A DNA stretch of 64,000 nt from Candidatus Sulfotelmatobacter sp. (lineage in GTDB: Bacteria; Acidobacteriota; Terriglobia; Terriglobales; Acidobacteriaceae), in assembly GCA_049513475.1 (NCBI GenBank), contig JBEKWC010000011.1, positions 45,664-109,663 of the forward strand, written 5' to 3'. The first letter of the stretch is position 1. Each line of letters begins with the position of its first letter. Shown in pieces: positions 6,733 to 33,429 of this stretch. A program made the translations under genes and the position numbers. Below the pieces are notes generated by a model. It did no database searches, was not told the DNA's origin, and saw only the letters and a program-made list of their open reading frames with translations.

Positions 6733-6769
6733 GGGGTCCTTCGCGCAAAAAGCGCAGCCAGGATGACAA
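6733..6769 (+). repeat. REP-like element, family A copy 1 (GGGGTCCTTCG...CAGGATGACAA)
   Basis: Shared termini with copies at 19546-19608, 23791-23818 and 28585-28614. The variable core here is the hairpin GCGC-AAAAA-GCGC. Confidence 0.7.
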
Positions 6770-9465: not shown

Positions 9466-9496
9466 CGGCTTCCGGCTTCCGGCGCTCGGCTTCCGG
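9466..9496 (+). repeat. Tandem heptamer array (CGGCTTC-like, 4 units)
   Basis: CGGCTTC CGGCTTC CGGCGCT CGGCTTC CGG, starting 3 nt after the osmC stop. The same heptamer array recurs at 20963-20993. Confidence 0.7.
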
Positions 9497-11420: not shown

Positions 11421-12713
11421 ATGGCTACGGTCGCACGAACGACGAAGGTCAAAATCCCCGCCCTCTTGCCCAGAACGCGAGAAGGACGGGGCACCCGGCG
11501 CGTTCTTGCTCCCACGCGGCACGCGCTTACTTCAACCCCGGAGCCTGGGCGGTTTGGGGTTTATGGCGGGCGGTATGTGCCGGAGACTTTGATGGCGGCG
11601 CTGGAGGAGTTGGAGCGGGAGTATGAGAGGGCGAAACGCGATCAGAAATTTCAGAAGCGGTTGGAATCCTTGCTGCGGAATTATGCGGGGCGTCCTACGG
11701 CTTTGAGTTTTGCGCGGCGGCTTACGGAGAAGTTGGGCGGGGCGAAGATTTATTTGAAGCGCGAAGACTTGCTGCACACCGGGGCGCACAAGATCAATAA
11801 CTGCCTGGGGCAGGCGCTGCTGGTGGAGCGCATGGGTAAGCGCCGGGTGATTGCGGAGACTGGGGCGGGGCAGCACGGAGTGGCTACGGCCACGGTTTGC
11901 GCGCTGCTCGGTTTCGAGTGCGTCGTGTACATGGGCACCGAGGATATGCGGCGGCAGGAGTTGAATGTGTTCCGCATGCGGCTGCTGGGTGCCGAGGTGC
12001 GCGGGGTGGAATCGGGGTCGCGGACGCTGAAAGATGCGATCAACGAAGCGATGCGCGATTGGGTTACGAACGTGCGCACTACGCATTACTTACTGGGGAG
12101 CGTGTTGGGGGCGCATCCGTATCCGACGATGGTGCGGGATTTTCATCGCGTGATTGGGCGCGAGGCGCGGGCGCAGATTCTGAAGGCCGAGGGGAAGTTG
12201 CCGGCGGCGGTGATTGCCTGCGTGGGCGGCGGGTCGAACGCAATCGGGATTTTTTACGAGTTCATAAAGGATAAGAAGGTTCGATTGATTGGAGTGGAGG
12301 CGGGCGGCCGCGGCGAGGCGCTGGGAGAACATGCGGCGCGCTTTCGCGGAGGGTTGCCGGGCGTTTTGCAGGGAACGTTTTCTTACGTGCTACAGGATGC
12401 GGCTGGGCAGATTGCGCTTACGCATTCGGTTTCGGCGGGGCTGGATTATCCCTCGATTGGGCCGGAGCACGCGGCTTTGCGGGATACGGGCCGGGCGGAG
12501 TACGTTCCGGCTTCGGATGCGGAAGCGTTGGAGGCTACTACTTTGCTGGCGCGGACGGAGGGGATTATTCCGGCGCTGGAGTCGGCGCATGCCGTGGCGG
12601 AAGTGATCAAACGCGCACCTGGGATGAAGAAGTCGGATGTCGTGCTCGTGAATGTTTCTGGGCGCGGGGATAAGGATATCGGGATCATGCGGGAGTCCCT
12701 GAACCTGGATTGA
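11421..12713 (+). CDS. trpB: Tryptophan synthase beta chain, with an N-terminal extension of about 35 aa
   Basis: HTGAHKINN (PLP lysine motif), [14 protein letters not shown]. The only plausible start is the ATG at 11421, 2 nt after the trpF stop. Confidence 0.9.
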
Positions 12714-12757
12714 ATGATTGAGAGATTGCGTCATTGAGTCAATCTCTCAAGGATGCA

Positions 12758-13558
12758 ATGCCTCGATCTTTTATGCCGTTATCTTTTTATAAAAAACCAG
12801 GGCTGGTGGTTTATGTGACTTGCGGGGATCCGGATCTCGCTACCACGCGGGATGTGGTGTTGGCCGCTATCGAGGCTGGCGCGGATGTGATCGAGTTGGG
12901 TGTGCCCTTCAGCGATCCGGTGGCGGATGGGCCGGTGATTCAGCGTGCCAGCGAGCGGGCGCTTGCGGCGGGAACTACTCTGGCACAGATTTTGACTTTA
13001 GCGGCGGAGCTGCGGCAGCAGGCGCAGTCCACGGGGCTAGTGGTGTTTTCGTATTTGAATCCCATCTTGCGCATGGGAATGGAGAAGTTTTGCCGGGTGG
13101 CGCGGCATGCGGGAGTGGACGGGGTGCTGGTGACGGACTTGCCGGTGGAAGAGGCCGGTGAATATCTTCTGGCTATGAAGGAAAATGATCTGGCGCCCGT
13201 GTTCTTGGCGGCGCCGACCAGTCCCGATGAGCGGTTGAAGCGGATTGCGGATGCTTCGAGAGGATTTGTGTACGCGGTGTCGCGGACCGGAGTCACGGGA
13301 GCGCGGCAGCAGTTGGCCGATGATGCGGAGAAACTGGTGCGGCGATTGCGGCGCGTGAGCAAGTCAGCGGTCGCGGTGGGATTTGGGATTTCGAATGCCG
13401 CGCAGTTTGCCGCAGTCGGCAAGTTTGCCGATGCGGTGGTGGTGGGTAGCGCGATTGTCGAGACCATTGAACAACATTGCGGGCGGGAGGCGGAGGCGGT
13501 GGGGGATTTTGTCAGGGCGTTGGTGGGTCCCCATCCTGGCCGCGAAACACGCGGCTAG
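12758..13558 (+). CDS. trpA: Tryptophan synthase alpha chain (alternative TTG start at 12734)
   Basis: YVTCGDPD, ELGVPFSDPVADGPVIQ and the glycine-rich C-terminal loop GFGIS. Confidence 0.88.
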   Translation: MPRSFMPLSFYKKPGLVVYVTCGDPDLATTRDVVLAAIEAGADVIELGVPFSDPVADGPVIQRASERALAAGTTLAQILTLAAELRQQAQSTGLVVFSYLNPILRMGMEKFCRVARHAGVDGVLVTDLPVEEAGEYLLAMKENDLAPVFLAAPTSPDERLKRIADASRGFVYAVSRTGVTGARQQLADDAEKLVRRLRRVSKSAVAVGFGISNAAQFAAVGKFADAVVVGSAIVETIEQHCGREAEAVGDFVRALVGPHPGRETRG

Positions 13559-13631
13559 GATGAGGCGCCCGCAGACATCAATGAAGTAGATATCCTTCAA
13601 TTGCTCGATGACAGATCGCTGCGAGAACTTC

Positions 13632-13946
13632 ATGGACATTGCGGATTGGCGAAAGAAAATCGATGACGTGGATCGAAAGTTGGTGGAACTGCTAAGTGAG
13701 CGGGCGCGGGCGGCGATCGAGATCGGTCGGTTGAAGCGGGCGACGAAATCTCCGATCTACGAGCCGGAGCGAGAGCGCATCGTGTTTGAGAATGCGCAGC
13801 AGGTGAATCGAGGTCCGCTGCCCGGGCGAGAATTGGTGAGAATTTTTGAGCGGATTATCGATGTGATGCGAAATCTGCAGAAGGATGGGAACGAAGTGGG
13901 CGGCGCAAAGGCCGAGACCGAATTGGAGTCGGAACTGGATGATTGA
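13632..13946 (+). CDS. Chorismate mutase (AroQ class)
   Basis: About 104 aa, helical. WRKKIDDVDRKLVELLSERARAAIEIGRLK and PEREREI-type motifs typical of AroQ. Confidence 0.75.
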   Translation: MDIADWRKKIDDVDRKLVELLSERARAAIEIGRLKRATKSPIYEPERERIVFENAQQVNRGPLPGRELVRIFERIIDVMRNLQKDGNEVGGAKAETELESELDD

Positions 13947-14043: not shown

Positions 14044-14067
14044 GGCTAGAAGCTAGAAGCTAGAAGC
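14044..14067 (+). repeat. Tandem heptamer array (GCTAGAA x3.4)
   Basis: GGCTAGAAGCTAGAAGCTAGAAGC, 13 nt upstream of the DAHP synthase start. Confidence 0.7.
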
Positions 14068-14079
14068 AGAGACTTTCTT

Positions 14080-15099
14080 ATGATTGTGGCGATGCAGGAT
14101 GTTGCGGATGAGACCCAGATTCAGTCGGTAATCGAGCAGCTGGTGAAGATGGGGTTTGAGGTGCACCGGTCGACCGGGGCGCGGCAAACCGTGCTGGGCG
14201 CGGTGGGCGCGGGGATCGATTTCGACATCCGCATCTTGGAGTTGCTGCCGGGTGTGCAGGAAGTGCATCGCATCAGTTCGCCCTACAAGCTGGCGGGAAA
14301 GAGTTTTCGTCCCGAGGGAACCGTGGTCAAGCTGGCGAATGGGATCAGCATCGGCGGGAACGAAGTGGTGGTGATGGCGGGGCCGTGCTCGGTGGAATCG
14401 CGGGAGCAGATTTTTTCTACGGCAGAGTCAGTCGCGAAGGCCGGGGCCAGGGTTTTGCGGGGTGGGGCGTTCAAGCCGAGGAGTTCTCCTTATTCTTTTC
14501 AGGGGCACGGGGAAGATGCGCTGAAGCTGATGCGCGAAGCGGGGGAGAAATTTGAGCTGCTGGTGATCAGCGAAGTGATGGAGATTTCGCAGATCGCGAT
14601 GATGCTGCCTTATGTGGACATTCTGCAGGTGGGAGCGCGCAACATGCAGAACTTCAATCTGCTGCGCGAACTGGGGAAGGTGCGCAAGCCGGTGCTGCTG
14701 AAGCGCGGGATCGCGGCTACGCTCGAAGAGTTGCTGCTTTCGGCCGAATACATTATGGCGGGCGGAAATTATGAAGTGATTTTGTGCGAGCGCGGGATCC
14801 GAACGTTTGAAACTTACACGCGGAACACGATGGATATTTCGGCGATTCCGATTATTCACAAGCTGTCGCATCTGCCGATGACGGCCGATCCGTCGCATGG
14901 AACGGGGCGGCGCGACAAAGTTGCGCCGATGGCGCGAGCGTCGGTGGCGGCGGGCGCAGACGCGTTGTTGATTGAGGTGCACTGCGATCCGAACCAGGCG
15001 TGGTCGGATGGAGCCCAGTCGCTCTTTCCCGAGCAGTTCGCCAAGCTGATGGATGAGTTGCGGATGATTGCGCCGGCGGTGGGAAGGAAAATTGGGTAA
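14080..15099 (+). CDS. 3-deoxy-7-phosphoheptulonate (DAHP) synthase, type I-beta, with an N-terminal regulatory domain
   Basis: 339 aa. [19 protein letters not shown] and DPSHGTG motifs. About 70 aa of ferredoxin-like N-terminal extension. Confidence 0.88.
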
Positions 15100-15184
15100 T
15101 TTGGTAATTTAGCAATTTGGTAATTTGAACGCGGTGCACTTTTGGCCTTTAAATTACCCGATTACAAAATTTACTAAATTACCC
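15094..15184 (+). repeat. Imperfect long hairpin whose arms are tandem octamers (GGTAATTT-like)
   Basis: The left arm GGGTAATTTGGTAATTTAGCAATTTGGTAATTT starts inside the DAHP synthase stop codon. The right arm AAATTACCCGATTACAAAATTTACTAAATTACCC ends 10 nt before tyrA. Confidence 0.75.
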
Positions 15185-15194
15185 GATCATTTTG

Positions 15195-16058
15195 ATGCCG
15201 ATTCGGCAAATCACGATTGTTGGGACGGGGCTGATCGGCGGGTCGTTGGCGCTGGCGCTGCGGAAGCGGCGGTTTGGGGGACGCATTGTGGGTTGCGACC
15301 GCCAGGCGACGTTGAAGAAGGCTCAGACGCTGGGCGTGATTGACGAGGGACGATCGAATCCCGGAGACGCCATGATCGGCAGCCAGTTGGTGGTGTTGGC
15401 TACGCCGGTGCTGGCCATTGTAGATTTGATTGGACGACTGGGTCCGGCCTTGCCTGTGGGCACGTTGCTGACCGATGTGGGCAGCACCAAAGCGGCGGTG
15501 GCGCAGCAGGCTGTGAAGGTGTTTGGGAAGAATGCTGGCAAGCGATTTCTGGGCGGGCATCCGATGGCGGGCAAGGAGCAGAGTGGTGTGGAGTTCGCCG
15601 ACGCCGATTTGTTCCAGGATGCGGTTTGGTTTATGACGCCGCTGCCGGGGCAGAAATTGCAAGATGGATTGTTTGCAGAATTTCTGGAATGGATCGATCG
15701 CATGGGGGCGCGCATTGCGATGCTTCCACCAAAGGAGCATGACCGGCTGTGCGCCTGGATCAGCCATGTGCCGCAAATGCTTTCGACTGCGCTGGCCGCG
15801 GCCTTGGTGGAGGAGTTTGGGGAGGAGGCTCCGCTGCTGGCCGCGGGCGGTCCGGCGTTGCGGGAGATGACGCGGATATCGGCGAGTCCTTATTCGATGT
15901 GGCGGGATATTGCGATCAGCAACCAGAAAAATCTCGGGGATGCGCTGCTCAAGGTGGAGCAGCGGCTGGCGCATATACGGGAGAATCTGAGTACGCGGCA
16001 ATTGGCGGAGGAGTTTGAGTTGGCGCATGGGTTGAAAAAGAGCGCGGGGAAGAAATAG
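15195..16058 (+). CDS. tyrA: Prephenate dehydrogenase
   Basis: IVGTGLIGGS (NAD fold), GGHPMAG, and the downstream TyrA-like dimerisation domain. Confidence 0.85.
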   Translation: MPIRQITIVGTGLIGGSLALALRKRRFGGRIVGCDRQATLKKAQTLGVIDEGRSNPGDAMIGSQLVVLATPVLAIVDLIGRLGPALPVGTLLTDVGSTKAAVAQQAVKVFGKNAGKRFLGGHPMAGKEQSGVEFADADLFQDAVWFMTPLPGQKLQDGLFAEFLEWIDRMGARIAMLPPKEHDRLCAWISHVPQMLSTALAAALVEEFGEEAPLLAAGGPALREMTRISASPYSMWRDIAISNQKNLGDALLKVEQRLAHIRENLSTRQLAEEFELAHGLKKSAGKK

Positions 16059-16067
16059 GGGAGCAGG

Positions 16068-16170
16068 AAATTGAGCGATTGAGCGATCGGGTCATTTCGC
16101 GATCGAAGACCTCGCTGAGTGGTGCTCTTCAAAATCGCTCCATGACCCAATCGCCAAATCGCTCAATTTT
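16068..16170 (+). repeat. Imperfect long hairpin whose arms are tandem octamers (GAGCGATT-like)
   Basis: AAATTGAGCGATTGAGCGATCGGGTCAT (16068-16095) pairs with ATGACCCAATCGCCAAATCGCTCAATTTT (16142-16170); about 24 of 28 positions are complementary. Confidence 0.75.
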
Positions 16171-16189
16171 CTTTTACAATGCGGACGCT

Positions 16190-16897
16190 ATGAACAAGGT
16201 AGTGGCGGGCGCGGATGAGGCGATTCGGGATGTGGGGGATGGTTCGGTCATTATGGTCGGGGGGTTTGGGCTGTGCGGCATGCCGGAGAATTTGATTCGC
16301 GCGCTGGCCCGGAAAGGATCGAAGAATCTTACGACCATTAGCAATAACGCGGGCGTGGATGGATTTGGGGTTGGGCTTTTGCTGGCGGCGGGGCAGATTC
16401 GGCGGCATATTGGAACTTACGTGGGCGAGAACAAGCTGCTGGAATCGATGGTGCTGACCGGAAAAGTGGAACTCGACCTGGTGCCGCAGGGAACATTTTC
16501 CGAGCGCATTCGCGCCGGGGGGGCGGGCATTCCCGCGTTTTTTACTCCTACCGGAGTGGGCACGATCGTCGCCGAAGGAAAAGAGACGCGCGAGTTCGAG
16601 GGCCGGACATACGTGATGGAGCGATGGTTGAAGGCGGACTTCGCTTTTGTGAAGGCATGGAAGGGCGATCGCATCGGCAATCTGGTGTACCGGAAGACGG
16701 CGCGGAATTTTAATCCGATCATGGCGACGGCGGCGAAGGTGGCGATCGCCGAGGTTGAGCAGTTGGTGGAGGTGGGAGAGTTGGATGGAGATTCGATTCA
16801 TACGCCGTCGGTTTACGTGAAGCGGATTTTTCAAGGGGAGTCGTATGAGCGGCGGATTGAGAAGCGGACGGTGAGGAAAAGCGTCGTTAGTGGTTAG
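16190..16897 (+). CDS. scoA: 3-oxoacid CoA-transferase subunit A
   Basis: [35 protein letters not shown] is the typical subunit A N-terminus. The track ORF start at 16079 reads through the upstream repeat hairpin. Confidence 0.88.
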
Positions 16898-16954
16898 TCG
16901 TTGGTCGTTGGCCAGGCCTCCGCTAATGCGACCAACGACCAACGACCGACGACG
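16883..16954 (+). repeat. Hairpin whose arms are tandem heptamers (GGTCGTT / AACGACC)
   Basis: Perfect 15-bp stem: GTCGTTGGTCGTTGG (16897-16911) with CCAACGACCAACGAC (16932-16946). It spans the scoA stop to just before the scoB start. Confidence 0.8.
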
Positions 16955-16964
16955 AATGACAACC

Positions 16965-17639
16965 ATGAATAAGCCAGGGAAAGATGTCGAGAAGCGCGAG
17001 CGCATTGTTAAGCGCATCGCTCGGGAGTTGCGGGATGGGTTCTATGTGAACCTGGGCATTGGGATGCCCACTCTGATCGGCAATCATGTTCCGGCGGGGA
17101 TTGAGGTGGTGTTGCAATCCGAGAATGGGATGCTGGGGATTGGGCCTTATCCGGTGGAGGGGCAGGAGGACGCGGATCTGATCAACGCGGGCAAGGAGAC
17201 CGTGAGCGAGATGCCAGGGACGGCTTATTTTTCCAGCGCCGATTCGTTTGCCATGATTCGCGGAGCGCATGTGGATTTGAGCGTGCTGGGCGCGATGGAA
17301 GTGGACGAAAGCGGCAGCCTGGCGAATTGGATGATCCCGGGGAAAATGGTGAAGGGGATGGGCGGGGCTATGGACCTGGTTGCCGGAGCTCGGCGGGTGG
17401 TGGTGGCCATGGAGCACACCACTCGCGAAGGTGCGCCGAAGATTTTGAAGAAGTGCACGTTGCCTCTCACCGGAGTGAATGTGGTGGATACGATTGTTAC
17501 CGAGATGGCGTACATCCGAGTGACCGAGCGGGGGTTGGTGTTGGAGGAAGTGGCTCCCGGGTTGACCGCGGAGGATGTGCAGCGGGCTACCGAGGCGCGG
17601 TTGGTGGTTAGCGAGGGGCTGAGGGTGATGGAGAGCTAG
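16965..17639 (+). CDS. scoB: 3-oxoacid CoA-transferase subunit B (alternative ATG at 16956)
   Basis: [19 protein letters not shown] and SENGMLG (catalytic Glu motif). Confidence 0.88.
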
Positions 17640-19545: not shown

Positions 19546-19608
19546 GGGGTCCTTCGACTGCGGTTTCGCTTCGCTATCGCGAAGCAAAATCCTCGCTCAG
19601 GATGACAA
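19546..19608 (+). repeat. REP-like element, family A copy 2 (long form with a nested hairpin)
   Basis: GGGGTCCTTCGACTGCG-[GTTTCGCTTCGCTATCGCGAAGCAAAATCCTC]-GCTCAGGATGACAA. Confidence 0.7.
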
Positions 19609-19619
19609 ATATAAGATTG

Positions 19620-20954
19620 CTACTCGTAGCGGAGGGCTTCTGCCGGCAGCGTTCTGCCTGCGGACCATGATGGGTAGAGTGTGGCTATGAACGATACGCC
19701 GATCGCCACGCTCGCTACCAGTACTCCATCCGTCAGGCGCGGGGCGAAGGGGACGTAGTCGATCGAGTAGACCTCGGGCGAGAGCGAGATGATGTGGTAG
19801 TGGCCGCCGGCGTAGGAGATGGCATAGCCTAGCAGCAAGCCGATCGCGGTGCCGATTACTCCGATCAGGACTCCCTGAGCGATGAAGATGTTGCGCACTT
19901 GCGATTTACGGGTGCCCATCGACATCAGGACGGCAATGTCTTTGGTTTTTTCCATGACCATCATGATCAGCGAAATCAGGATGTTCAGGGCGGCTACGAA
20001 GACGATGAGGCCGATGGTGATGAAGGTGACTAGGCGCTCGAGGCGCAGGGCGTGGAAGAGAGCCTGATTCTGCTCCATCCAGTTGGTGGTCATGAAGCCT
20101 TTGCCTGCGGCGGCTTCGAGTTCGCGGGAGACCTCGCCGGCTTGGTAGATGTCGTCCACTTTGAATTCGATGACCGAGATGAGATCGCCCAGGCCGAAGA
20201 GGCGTTGCGCGTCGGAGAGGCGGGTGAAGGCCCAGGAGGAATCGTAATCGTAGAAGCCGGAGTTGAAAATTCCAACGACGCGGAAGCGGCTGTATTTGGG
20301 GACCATGCCGAAGGGAGTGAGTTCGCCTTGGGGGCTGGTGACGAGCACGACCGAGCCCGCCGTGGCTCCTAGATTGTCGGCCATGTCTTTACCGAGGATG
20401 ATCGGGGGCATGGCGGCCAGTCGGTTGTGGAGTGCTTCGAGCGAGTCTGGAGAGTCGGTCGCTGACCCTCCCTGGACAGAGGAGGCGGCTGTCCCCACAT
20501 GATTCCCCGGATCCCTGTCTTTTTCTGTTGCGTCGAGGGCTTCGGCGGAGCCTTCTTTCATGCTATTCAATAGGTCGCCGATTTTTCTTTCGTCGGCGGG
20601 GATCATGCCTTTGAGGACAGCGCCACGGGCTCGGGGACCGCGGGAAATTAATACTTGCTCGAAAATTGCCGGGGCCGCCGCTACTACGTGCGGCTCTTTG
20701 GACAAACGGGCTAGAAGCGGCGGCCAGTCTTTGATGCCGTCGTCGGCTATGCGGAGGAGGCTGATGTGAGAGGTTGATCCGATGAGGCGCTCCTGCAAAT
20801 CCTGGCGAAAGCCGTTGTTGATGGCTAAGGCGACGATCAGCGAGGCTACGCCAGCGGCTACTCCGACGATGGAGATGCCCGTGATGATGCCGATGAACGC
20901 CTGGCGGCGCTTGGCGCGCAGGTAACGGGTTGCTATGAAGAGTTCGAAGCGCAT
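19620..20954 (-). CDS. lolE: LolC/LolE-family lipoprotein-releasing ABC transporter permease
   Basis: 444 aa. FtsX-like C-terminal 4-TM domain and MacB-like periplasmic domain. Contains an extra segment of about 30-40 aa that coincides with a REP-B copy. Confidence 0.85.
   Translation of the reverse strand: MRFELFIATRYLRAKRRQAFIGIITGISIVGVAAGVASLIVALAINNGFRQDLQERLIGSTSHISLLRIADDGIKDWPPLLARLSKEPHVVAAAPAIFEQVLISRGPRARGAVLKGMIPADERKIGDLLNSMKEGSAEALDATEKDRDPGNHVGTAASSVQGGSATDSPDSLEALHNRLAAMPPIILGKDMADNLGATAGSVVLVTSPQGELTPFGMVPKYSRFRVVGIFNSGFYDYDSSWAFTRLSDAQRLFGLGDLISVIEFKVDDIYQAGEVSRELEAAAGKGFMTTNWMEQNQALFHALRLERLVTFITIGLIVFVAALNILISLIMMVMEKTKDIAVLMSMGTRKSQVRNIFIAQGVLIGVIGTAIGLLLGYAISYAGGHYHIISLSPEVYSIDYVPFAPRLTDGVLVASVAIGVSFIATLYPSWSAGRTLPAEALRYE
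20474..20501 (+). repeat. REP-like element, family B copy 3, in frame inside lolE
   Basis: GGACAGAGGAGGCGGCTGTCCCCACATG. The GGCTGTCCCCACATG part is identical to copy 2. On the lolE strand it encodes part of ...PGNHVGTAASSVQGG... Confidence 0.55.
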
Positions 20955-20962
20955 GCTTGGGT

Positions 20963-20993
20963 CGGCTTCCGGCTTCCGGCTTTCGTTTTCGGC
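20963..20993 (+). repeat. Tandem heptamer array (CGGCTTC-like, degenerating)
   Basis: CGGCTTC CGGCTTC CGGCTTT CGTTTTC GGC, immediately upstream of the lolE start. Same word as at 9466-9496. Confidence 0.65.
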
Positions 20994-23790: not shown

Positions 23791-23818
23791 AGGTCCTTCG
23801 CTTGGCTCAGGATGACAA
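23791..23818 (+). repeat. REP-like element, family A copy 3 (short form)
   Basis: AGGTCCTTCGCTTGGCTCAGGATGACAA, between convergent genes. Confidence 0.6.
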
Positions 23819-28584: not shown

Positions 28585-28614
28585 GGGGTCCTTCGACTGC
28601 GCTCAGGATGACAA
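28585..28614 (+). repeat. REP-like element, family A copy 4 (minimal form)
   Basis: GGGGTCCTTCGACTGCGCTCAGGATGACAA, ending 8 nt before the mtnA ATG. Confidence 0.7.
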
Positions 28615-33373: not shown

Positions 33374-33391
33374 AGGCAGCCGTCAGCTATC

Positions 33392-33429
33392 AGCCGTCAG
33401 CGAAAACAAAGCTGGCGGCTTTTGTTTTT
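33392..33429 (+). terminator. Intrinsic terminator after clpC
   Basis: AGCCGTCAGC (33392-33401) pairs with GCTGGCGGCT (33411-33420) with one G-U pair, loop GAAAACAAA, followed by TTTGTTTTT. The left arm belongs to a CAGCCGT-type heptamer array (33377-33404). Confidence 0.75.

Follow-up and report, generated by a model that had tools for sequence, protein, structure and literature searches.

Hairpins of tandem 7-8-nt words in the spacers of an acidobacterial aroF-tyrA-scoA-scoB operon as candidate gene-less relatives of S23p cassettes

What kind of element fills the spacers of an aromatic amino-acid operon with strong hairpins, each made of different short words, and how did it come to lie between the stop of one gene and the start of the next? 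The question is raised by the aroF-tyrA-scoA-scoB genes of a peat-soil acidobacterium, which were analysed within a 64,000-nt stretch of Candidatus Sulfotelmatobacter DNA (here called the window). The aroF-tyrA, tyrA-scoA and scoA-scoB spacers contain one hairpin each, with arms of 29-39 nt composed of tandem 8- or 7-nt words, an arm complementarity of 78-83%, loops of 17-30 nt and fold z-scores between -6.2 and -7.0 (Table 1). A comparison of the window with Rfam matched two tRNAs and Acido-Lenti-1 only and returned nothing in the spacers.

Table 1. Word arrays and hairpin arms in and near the operon, with positions in the window.
Feature	Words	Position	Strand	Detected by; remarks
Small 8-mer-type hairpin, trpB-trpA spacer	ATTGAGAG...CAATCTCTCAA	12709..12759	+	TRF period 8, 4.1 copies; z -2.6
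Direct array	(GCTAGAA)x3.3	14045..14067	+	TRF; 12 nt 5' of aroF ATG (14080)
aroF-tyrA 5' arm	8-nt words GGTAATTT/AGCAATTT	15089..15127	+	TRF, inverted-repeat search, fold
aroF-tyrA 3' arm	AAATTACC-type	15145..15187	+	inverted-repeat search, fold
tyrA-scoA 5' arm	8-nt words ATTGAGCG/ATCGGGTC/ATTTCGCG	16065..16103	+	inverted-repeat search, fold
tyrA-scoA 3' arm		16134..16172	+	inverted-repeat search, fold
scoA-scoB 5' arm	7-nt words GTCGTTA/GTGGTTA/GTCGTTG	16883..16911	+	inverted-repeat search, fold
scoA-scoB 3' arm	CCAACGA-type	16932..16960	+	inverted-repeat search, fold

None of 200 shuffles folded as well as the aroF-tyrA hairpin (MFE -37.1 kcal/mol, z -6.2). The first word of its 5' arm includes the aroF TAA stop (15097-15099), and its 3' arm, identical across 10 strain-level contigs, ends 7 nt 5' of the tyrA ATG (15195). 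The tyrA-scoA arms measure 39 nt each, are 82% complementary and are separated by 30 nt (MFE -56.3, z -7.0). Those of the scoA-scoB hairpin are 29 nt long and 83% complementary (z -7.0) and include a perfect 15-bp stem, in which 16897-16911 pairs with 16932-16946; the 3' arm ends 4 nt 5' of the scoB ATG (16965). Because the 5' arm begins within scoA, the last four codons of this gene and its TAG stop (16895-16897) are encoded by the first two array words; ScoA alignments to most relatives end at residue 230-231 of 235. An earlier note on this DNA had described an aroF-tyrA arm starting inside the stop codon with its inverted partner, and the perfect scoA-scoB stem, all of which we recovered. 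The tyrA-scoA arms it reported are also present, at the length given above and not at the stated length of about 28 nt. The threefold GCTAGAA that it placed before the DAHP synthase gene was found as well; this array lacks an inverted partner and shows no sign of folding (z -0.14).

Genome-wide counts revealed that the operon is one instance of an abundant pattern. Non-coding DNA contains 276 exact period-7 repeats, compared with 59 in a Markov-3 simulation, and TRF detected 258 period-7 and 161 period-8 intergenic arrays (419 together). An inverted partner, defined by a distance of at most 150 nt and a score of at least 12, accompanies 68/258 period-7 and 34/161 period-8 arrays (102/419), whereas control searches in reversed flanks yielded 1-2 partners per period; for periods 6, 9 and 10 the partnered arrays numbered 0/54, 2/143 and 1/102. 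The genome-wide enrichment that the earlier note had made the touchstone of its reading is thus borne out. We obtained 84 non-redundant hairpins, and for 82 of them both neighbouring genes could be called. Their words belong to about ten recurrent families, each at many sites; single words of 7-8 nt are found at 8-24 sites and across several genera of the family, GAACTGA being the commonest (24 arrays). The remark that the word differs at every site holds within the operon and fails across the genome, and the accompanying argument that duplication of one REP sequence does not explain the pattern agrees with these multiple families. The loops span 17-137 nt and are unique at every copy; the hairpins are therefore a poor fit to simple copy-and-paste. 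At some hairpins a T-rich tract lies between the stem and the next ATG.

The placement of the hairpins relative to genes was determined with crude, purpose-made gene calls, by which 71/82 hairpins (87%) lie between co-directional genes (61% expected, p = 3e-7) and just 4/82 in convergent spacers (18% expected, p = 3e-4). Their 5' arms start at a median of 6 nt 3' of the stop codon and the hairpins end about 16 nt before the next start.

Aligned ORFs, proximity to the upstream stop and convergent pairs of arrays are features of a described class of heptamer repeats. The Xanthomonas GGGAATC and Nostoc GGGGA(C/T)T heptamers often form two convergent arrays that pair (70-75 cases per genome), favour spacers of aligned ORFs, at up to about 50 bp from the stop, are rare between divergent ORFs, are mostly transcribed, and differ in length and sequence between related species (Rehm et al. 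2015, PMC4692102). The repeats described here share with them the tandem 7-nt units, the inverted pairing and the position near stops in aligned-ORF spacers. However, that study treated one G-rich word as a quadruplex former, whereas we find about ten families, of which the 8-nt units cannot form G4, and, unlike the present work, it connected the repeats neither with S23p nor with insertion into tight junctions (PMC4692102). A second comparison concerns the TAACTGA repeats of Beggiatoaceae, Cyanobacteria and Bacteroidetes, which have one dominant word, occur in core operons near start codons lacking canonical ribosome-binding sites, and are nearly all direct, with one indirect repeat among 170 sets (MacGregor 2015, PMC4679880). 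Abundant intergenic tandem heptamers are common to STRR, TAACTGA and our genome, in which GAACTGA is one base from TAACTGA; in contrast to the TAACTGA sets, a quarter of the arrays here are paired in hairpins and many words coexist. The kinship with STRR-like heptamer repeats proposed in the earlier note is supported by the 7-nt intergenic excess, two of the three operon hairpins belonging to an 8-nt variant.

Comparison of orthologous spacers shows that the hairpins were inserted between genes whose junctions are tight or overlapping in some relatives. In two species the aroF-tyrA junction is empty and reads TAATG or TAGTATG, in other relatives the tyrA-scoA and scoA-scoB spacers are as short as 28-55 nt and 2-27 nt, and empty junctions among the orthologues measure 5-31 nt. 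The position from stop codon to next gene, which had been taken for a conserved architecture, is real but is accounted for by insertion into junctions that were once tight. The same alignments show that occupancy and word family turn over between species. Across 80 species compared, long spacers with a strong hairpin amounted to 44/78 and 33/60 (shuffles, 0), and the aroF-tyrA spacer is filled in nearly all of them, by differing families. One orthologous spacer may contain, depending on the species, the 8-mer xxxxxATT family, the CACAGAGR family, GTTGATT, CAGTGGY or other repeats. Contents already differ between two relatives with 90% TyrA identity, where the whole spacer has been replaced. 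At the one filled/empty locus compared (G000 C37 versus L064/66/67/68) no target-site duplication was visible at that divergence and no transposition signature was found; the whole 22-nt spacer is replaced. Three relatives carry large inserts at the same spacers, with ORFs of 338, 128 and 167 aa that by eye are unlike S23p. Between strains, perfect arrays change copy number by slippage: (GCTAGAA)n is present in 3, 5 or 6 copies in contigs of near-identical strains, whose seven proteins share 98-100% identity apart from trpB in two contigs, and the hairpins are unchanged.

The arrays are associated with one gene family. S23p/IVP (PF05635) is a four-helix-bundle protein, and the structures PDB 2GSC and 2RLD contain five chains each. 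Inverted arrays enclose all six PF05635 loci in this genome and 24/29 in the genus, compared with 16/527 control small genes (Fisher test, 9e-27). The bracketing words include the GGTAATTT-type (L076) and the GGTCGTT-type (L079) and, in relatives, GCTAGAA-type words (L052, L054, L055, L078). The site occupied by S23p in L076 is filled in this genome by an 8-mer hairpin without the gene, and that of L064/66/67/68 is the empty 22-nt spacer. Counted with codon scoring, S23p has the same orientation as both neighbours at 18 loci and is opposed to both at none. At one orthologous S23p site the word variants drift (AGCTGCT/AGCTCTT/AGCTATT/AGCTCTC). The operon hairpins, with their short loops, contain no PF05635 ORF, and this genome's six S23p copies are all broken remnants; an active partner is therefore lacking here. 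An intact S23p occurs in a relative, at L064:1483-1881.

We lean towards assigning the three hairpins, together with the lone GCTAGAA array, to a class of foldback insertions with inverted 7-8-nt word arrays as arms, of which they would be members lacking the gene. A complete element would consist of a 5' array, an S23p/IVP gene and a 3' inverted array, a design that would correspond to that of the 23S rRNA intervening sequences (IVS) excised by RNase III. Such elements may be selfish or near-neutral DNA that needs read-through transcription of the host operon to spread or persist; hairpins without the gene could result from ORF loss or from mobilisation in trans. That different families refill the same spacer could alternatively reflect selection for a hairpin at this place.

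The best described IVS for comparison is that of Coxiella burnetii, which has a 28-bp terminal stem cut by RNase III in mid-stem, tandem GACAGAT heptamers in its arm, in strain-variable number, and a decaying PF05635 ORF in its loop, and is transcribed within the host transcript (PMC4990558). S23p-bearing 23S IVS also occur in Leptospira, according to work cited there (PMC4990558). The likeness lies in the array-S23p-array cassettes counted above and in the stems, the operon arms being comparable to terminal inverted repeats of about 28 bp with heptamers in the arms. Unlike the 23S IVS, the operon hairpins lie in mRNA spacers and are ORF-less, and every copy seen is located between protein-coding genes and not in a 23S rRNA helix, in an assembly from which the 23S gene is missing; RNase III cutting has been shown for the IVS only. 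Processing of the hairpins like these RNase III-cut sequences is possible by analogy: stems of 25-39 bp in a polycistronic mRNA would be RNase III substrates, the genome contains an RNase III gene, at G000 C6:117875-118282, and the main effect at the RNA level might be that the operon transcript is cleaved in every spacer rather than terminated.

A broader version would unite STRR, TAACTGA, the Xanthomonas heptamers, the acidobacterial 7/8-mer hairpins and the S23p rRNA IVS in one mobile class, in which an Avd-like S23p would recognise the repeats, elements would home into hairpin loops of transcribed DNA (operon spacers, rRNA helices) and RNase III excision from the transcript would make them harmless. 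We regard this version as speculative and rather improbable; if true, the element would in effect be a protein-independent 'intervening sequence' of bacterial mRNAs.

Another explanation would be that the hairpins are selected intercistronic RNA elements, which set expression ratios through processing or stability or couple translation from stop to start without a Shine-Dalgarno sequence. Their span from stop to start would suit such a role, but follows trivially from insertion into short spacers. Genes downstream of hairpins have an SD-like motif less often than controls (10/56 versus 34%, p = 0.015) and TT before the ATG more often, and the near-constant filling of the aroF-tyrA spacer, though by differing families, also speaks for selection. 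On the other hand, relatives function with empty junctions such as TAATG or a 28-nt tyrA-scoA spacer. Among the stem mismatches we found no excess of sense-strand G:U over A:C (69 versus 80), so that no selection on the fold of the mRNA can be discerned. Arm complementarity within hairpins is 0.83 compared with an arm identity between species of 0.75, in words that are of low complexity. In the 90% relative the stems decay without compensatory changes; of the two changes that the earlier note had proposed to look for in orthologous spacers, unit-number variation was seen, in the direct GCTAGAA array only, and compensation was not. Taken together, we consider selection for an RNA function unlikely.

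Somewhat less likely still is growth in place, by which polymerase slippage and intrastrand template switching would build arrays and hairpins locally, with no mobile element involved and with S23p genes gathering the same by-product. The whole-unit copy-number changes between strains, the word drift at the orthologous S23p site and the unique loops would all be expected from it, and slippage has been proposed for heptamer excess in literature cited in PMC4692102. It does not readily account for the recurrence of the same words at many sites and in several genera, for whole-spacer replacement between 90% relatives, for the association with one gene family or for the orientation bias of S23p.

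Mobilisation of REP/REPIN-type elements by a RAYT (Y1 transposase) appears highly improbable. Like REP, BIME and REPIN, the hairpins are extragenic, palindromic, multi-family and often placed just past stop codons within operons, and the genome has three matches to PF01797; these are, however, weak (22-38 bits) or truncated, none of the three is flanked by word hairpins, and we rejected a RAYT link for these reasons. The arms also differ from REPs in being internally tandem-periodic, variable word strings without a conserved REP core. Escherichia coli REPs are not known to be depleted in convergent spacers, unlike the word hairpins. Equally remote is a role as intrinsic terminators or as transcriptional insulators between separate transcription units, the latter suggested in the earlier note: strong stems, some with a T-rich tract, and a promoter-like site (TCGCCA-18-TACAAT, 16151-16180) whose -35-like half is overlapped by the tyrA-scoA 3' arm would fit, but convergent spacers are depleted, loops reach 137 nt, GGTAATTT-type stems are AT-rich, a terminator scan made no calls at the hairpins, and stem-filled spacers of 70-130 nt are mostly too short to accommodate a promoter as well. 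The distribution and anatomy thus led us to reject the intrinsic terminator, with its short GC-rich stem, 3-8-nt loop, U-tract and location at operon ends. Further ideas considered were that cold-shock proteins might bind G/T-rich heptamers, that ribosomes might be shunted past the stem, and that repeats might be added to breaks in a telomerase-like manner.

Tandem heptamers have been recorded for decades in cyanobacteria, Xanthomonas, Beggiatoaceae and Bacteroidetes without explanation, and the S23p gene is equally unexplained. On the sequence evidence, the best reading is that the arrays between operon genes in this genus are S23p cassette arms, so that heptamer repeats and S23p would be one object. 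Filled, empty and replaced states of the same spacer can be compared across 80 species, which opens the questions of RNase III segmentation of operon mRNAs, of S23p-repeat binding and of the route of entry into tight junctions. The insertions take the place of native ribosome-binding regions, and host genes receive from them stop codons and even C-terminal codons, which is of consequence for annotation and operon models in Acidobacteriota.

Public records closest to the genome G000 (5.8 Mb, 58.8% G+C) are MAGs from peat and bog that carry the label Acidobacteriaceae or Candidatus Sulfotelmatobacter; the window is C11:45664-109663 of this genome. The four items listed by the earlier note, a direct GCTAGAA array before aroF and hairpins of tandem words in the three spacers of aroF-tyrA-scoA-scoB, were all found in place. 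The aroF-tyrA arms consist of 8-nt words, the first of which contains the TAA stop of aroF. The tyrA-scoA arms (39 nt each, 30 nt between them) show 82% complementarity, and in scoA-scoB 29-nt arms enclose a perfect 15-bp core, the 5' arm starting within scoA. Single-strand folding of these spacers gave -37.1 (z -6.2), -56.3 (z -7.0) and -43.9 kcal/mol (z -7.0), respectively, with 0/200 shuffles folding as well as the native sequence. The GCTAGAA region upstream of aroF showed no fold signal (z -0.14). The trpB-trpA spacer has a smaller hairpin of this kind. At the hairpins, a terminator scan gave no call.

Positions of genes, repeats and related features (bare coordinates, window; C, contigs of G000)
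Feature	Position	Remark
Acido-Lenti-1 RNA match	646-691	45 bits, over gathering score
Second repeat family	6737-6767	
Unpaired CGGCTTC x4.4 array	9466-9496	starts ~3 nt past called ORF's end
trpB	11421-12713	
trpA	12734-13558	
Chorismate mutase	13608-13946	
Direct array GCTAGAA x3.3	14045-14067	12 nt upstream of aroF ATG
DAHP synthase (aroF)	14080-15099	
Prephenate dehydrogenase (tyrA)	15195-16058	
Motif 5' of scoA	16171-16192	TTTTACAATGCGGACGCTATG
CoA-transferase subunit scoA	16190-16897	
First two words of scoA-scoB hairpin	16883-16897	last four scoA codons (VVSG) and TAG stop
CoA-transferase subunit scoB	16965-17639	
Second repeat family	19550-19606	
Unpaired CGGCTTC x2.9 array	20963-20982	just upstream of start of minus-strand gene 19620-20954
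Second repeat family	23794-23816	
Second repeat family	28589-28612	within called ORF
Unpaired CAGCCGT x3.6 array	33377-33401	~3 nt past called ORF's end; terminator-like hairpin AAAACAAAGC...GCTTTTGTTTTT next
Broken PF05635 copy	C1:114767-115093	
Broken PF05635 copy	C2:35745-36053	
Broken PF05635 copy	C16:83304-83620	
Broken PF05635 copy	C40:34800-35006	
Broken PF05635 copy	C62:18264-18589	
Broken PF05635 copy	C69:10945-11103	
RNase III gene	C6:117875-118282	
Hairpin, GCACTCA-type heptamer arms	C15:72293-72460	123-nt loop a hexamer array (ATCAAT), ~15 repeats
Small-gene run	C15:89600-101900	word hairpins in several successive spacers (90044, 91017, 92601, 99679); some genes look 'bracketed' by one-family arrays

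The reported operon hairpins, confirmed as an observation, are the local instance of a class found throughout the genome. Non-coding DNA of G000 held 276 exact period-7 repeats versus 59 in a Markov-3 simulation, and 69 versus 0 with at least 2.5 copies; genes were called crudely by codon usage, and boundary-dependent counts are approximate. The genome-wide scan for tandem 7-8-mers with inverted partners that the earlier note had proposed revealed enrichment: among intergenic arrays detected by Tandem Repeats Finder, 68/258 of period 7 and 34/161 of period 8 had a partner (within 150 nt, alignment score at least 12), against 1-2 with reversed, not complemented, flanks. Near-zero counts at periods 6 (0/54), 9 (2/143) and 10 (1/102) indicate that the paired-array architecture is specific to 7- and 8-nt units. 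Merging yielded 84 hairpins with median arm, loop and span of 23, 36 and 86 nt. Within the operon the word is different at each site; genome-wide, words are not site-specific and recur as families, each at many loci, including GGTAATTT, ATTGAGCG, GGTCGTT, CGGGCTT/CGGCTTC, CAGTTCT, AGCTCTT, CAGTACC, AGCAATT, CAGTTGC and others. Of 81 informative hairpins, 67 have a G+T-rich 5' arm. A GGTAATTK dimer was found in 5/16 genomes of the window's family, one with 44 matches, and was absent from 185 other genomes of the phylum.

Both neighbours are co-directional at 71 of the 82 hairpins with both called, versus 61% expected from spacers 60 nt or longer (p = 3e-7); convergent (4/82) and divergent (7/82) spacers hold fewer than expected. 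The 5' arm starts a median 6 nt (IQR 3-13) after the upstream stop codon, and the next usable start codon, crudely assigned, lies a median 16 nt beyond the 3' arm. SD-like tetramers precede 10/56 hairpin-downstream genes versus 34% in short co-directional spacers without hairpin (p = 0.015), and TT immediately 5' of the start codon is commoner in the hairpin-downstream genes.

Gene order aroF-tyrA-scoA-scoB is retained in 21 same-genus genomes; the spacer contents vary. Their aroF-tyrA spacers carry the 8-mer family in ten species and, in nine, a CACAGAGR family whose TTCACCAC termini are conserved. The two downstream spacers hold, depending on species, 8-mer, CACAGAGR, CAGTGGY, CAGTACC or GGTCGTT families or an unrelated REP, and in some species are short and empty (tyrA-scoA 31-55 nt, scoA-scoB 2-27 nt). 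Nesting was detected in two relatives, with a second hairpin (L002) or a REP (L005) within a hairpin loop. Across a wider set of 80 species, aroF and tyrA meet as TAATG or TAGTATG in two, and 44/78 long spacers contain a strong hairpin (0 after shuffling), with a best arm period of 8 in 35/44; tyrA-scoA has a minimum of 28 nt and strong hairpins in 33/60 long spacers. Differences from the window are present even in two relatives with 90% TyrA identity: in one, aroF-tyrA contains ATTGAGTG-type words, which supply TGA instead of TAA as stop, and in the other, tyrA-scoA contains a different repeat. These comparisons argue that the operon hairpins are insertions that turn over between species. ScoA alignments with most relatives stop at residue 230-231 of 235; as arm words encode the C-terminal codons and stop of scoA, the insertion has rewritten the C-terminus of its host protein.

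In three relatives these spacers contain inserted ORFs in place of hairpins, namely of 338 aa in L009 aroF-tyrA (1021 nt), 128 aa (membrane-like) in L019 tyrA-scoA (484 nt) and 167 aa in L002 scoA-scoB (510 nt); such junctions would seem to be hot spots for insertions in general. A second repeat family, (G)GTCCTTCG...loop...CTCAGGATGAC(A), is unrelated to the word hairpins and has four window copies versus 0 expected; in many relatives it lies in scoA-scoB or tyrA-scoA spacers, sometimes within a word-hairpin loop. Immediately 5' of scoA, a TTTAGAAT/TACAAT-N9-ATG motif is kept in most species (L002-L022, L081-L160), even with a 28-nt spacer. Its TACAAT fits a -10 box (promoter-like TCGCCA-18-TACAAT, located in the 3' arm); at this spacing from the ATG, the scoA mRNA would have no leader or almost none.

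Strain-level variation was followed in ten metagenome contigs with DAHP synthase, TyrA, ScoA and ScoB at 100% identity; the remaining proteins compared were mostly 98-100% identical (trpB 94% and 65% in two contigs). Changes in the three hairpins were limited to a single SNP, a 1-nt deletion and an altered loop; the direct array before aroF had 3, 5 or 6 units. Imperfect hairpin arms are thus stable at this time scale, and the confinement of unit-number change to the perfect GCTAGAA array indicates that slippage acts on perfect arrays. Of the changes sought in related spacers, unit-number variation was therefore present in this array only, and compensatory changes were not seen: the substitutions in the one clearly orthologous hairpin, L081 tyrA-scoA, are uncompensated. 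Sense-strand stem mismatches in the 71 co-directional hairpins, aligned with Watson-Crick matches alone scored, comprised 69 G:U versus 80 A:C (p = 0.41). Without a G:U excess, no selection for the stem in sense RNA can be detected; since such long stems tolerate single mismatches, this is no proof that selection is absent. Complementarity within hairpins was 0.83 and arm identity between species 0.75, the words being of low complexity.

Inverted heptamer arrays bracket all six loci of the PF05635 (S23p) family, known from 23S rRNA intervening sequences (IVS), in G000, each of which has stops or frameshifts. Many relatives retain intact copies of 120-150 aa, and several G000 loci have orthologous counterparts in other members of the genus; seven species share the C1 site. 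The family occurred in 26/26 genus genomes searched. Inverted arrays that outscore the 99th percentile for random windows flank 24/29 fetched loci, compared with 16/527 small genes with spacers on both sides (Fisher 9e-27). The bracketing words include the operon's own: GCTAGAA type, GGTCGTT type (locus L079) and GGTAATTT 8-mer type (L076). The corresponding G000 sites hold an 8-mer hairpin without gene (L076), a CAGTTCT hairpin without gene (L079) or an empty 22-nt spacer with SD-like AAGGATGG (L064/66/67/68). Where this last spacer is filled, the 5' array abuts the upstream stop, the S23p stop lies inside the 3' array and the next ATG comes 2-8 nt later. Relative to S23p, the two neighbouring genes run in the same direction at 18 loci, which represent nine or more independent sites, and both run oppositely at 0. 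Searches with an intact copy gave TIGR02436 'four helix bundle protein', PDB 2GSC (Xanthomonas XCC0516) and 2RLD, plus a weak match to the DGR protein Avd.

Mobilisation by a Y1 transposase was rejected: G000 has only weak matches, which show no relation to the hairpins. The hairpins are best explained as a gene-less foldback element with heptamer or octamer arms, related to S23p intervening sequences and inserted into operon junctions that were once tight. At the DNA level, both slippage and replacement take place. The Coxiella IVS is a 428-nt 23S rRNA element with a 28-bp terminal stem cut mid-stem by RNase III, an S23p ORF in decay and tandem GACAGAT heptamers, two or three according to strain (PMC4990558). 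Xanthomonas GGGAATC arrays, often convergent pairs and mostly transcribed, lie between aligned ORFs, ~50 bp or less from the stop codon (PMC4692102). In Beggiatoaceae, cyanobacteria and Bacteroidetes, TAACTGA heptamers precede start codons that lack a canonical ribosome-binding site (PMC4679880), and a Nostoc preprint speculates on a heptamer-binding protein, unidentified there (10.1101/2022.06.06.494920). No paper linking gene-less operon hairpins with S23p cassettes was found in the searchable literature. By analogy, the likeliest RNA consequence would be RNase III cleavage of the hairpins. Heptamer repeats and IVS are already described as a class; what is new is a variant, the 7/8-mer hairpins of several families that acidobacterial operons carry, with their link to S23p.
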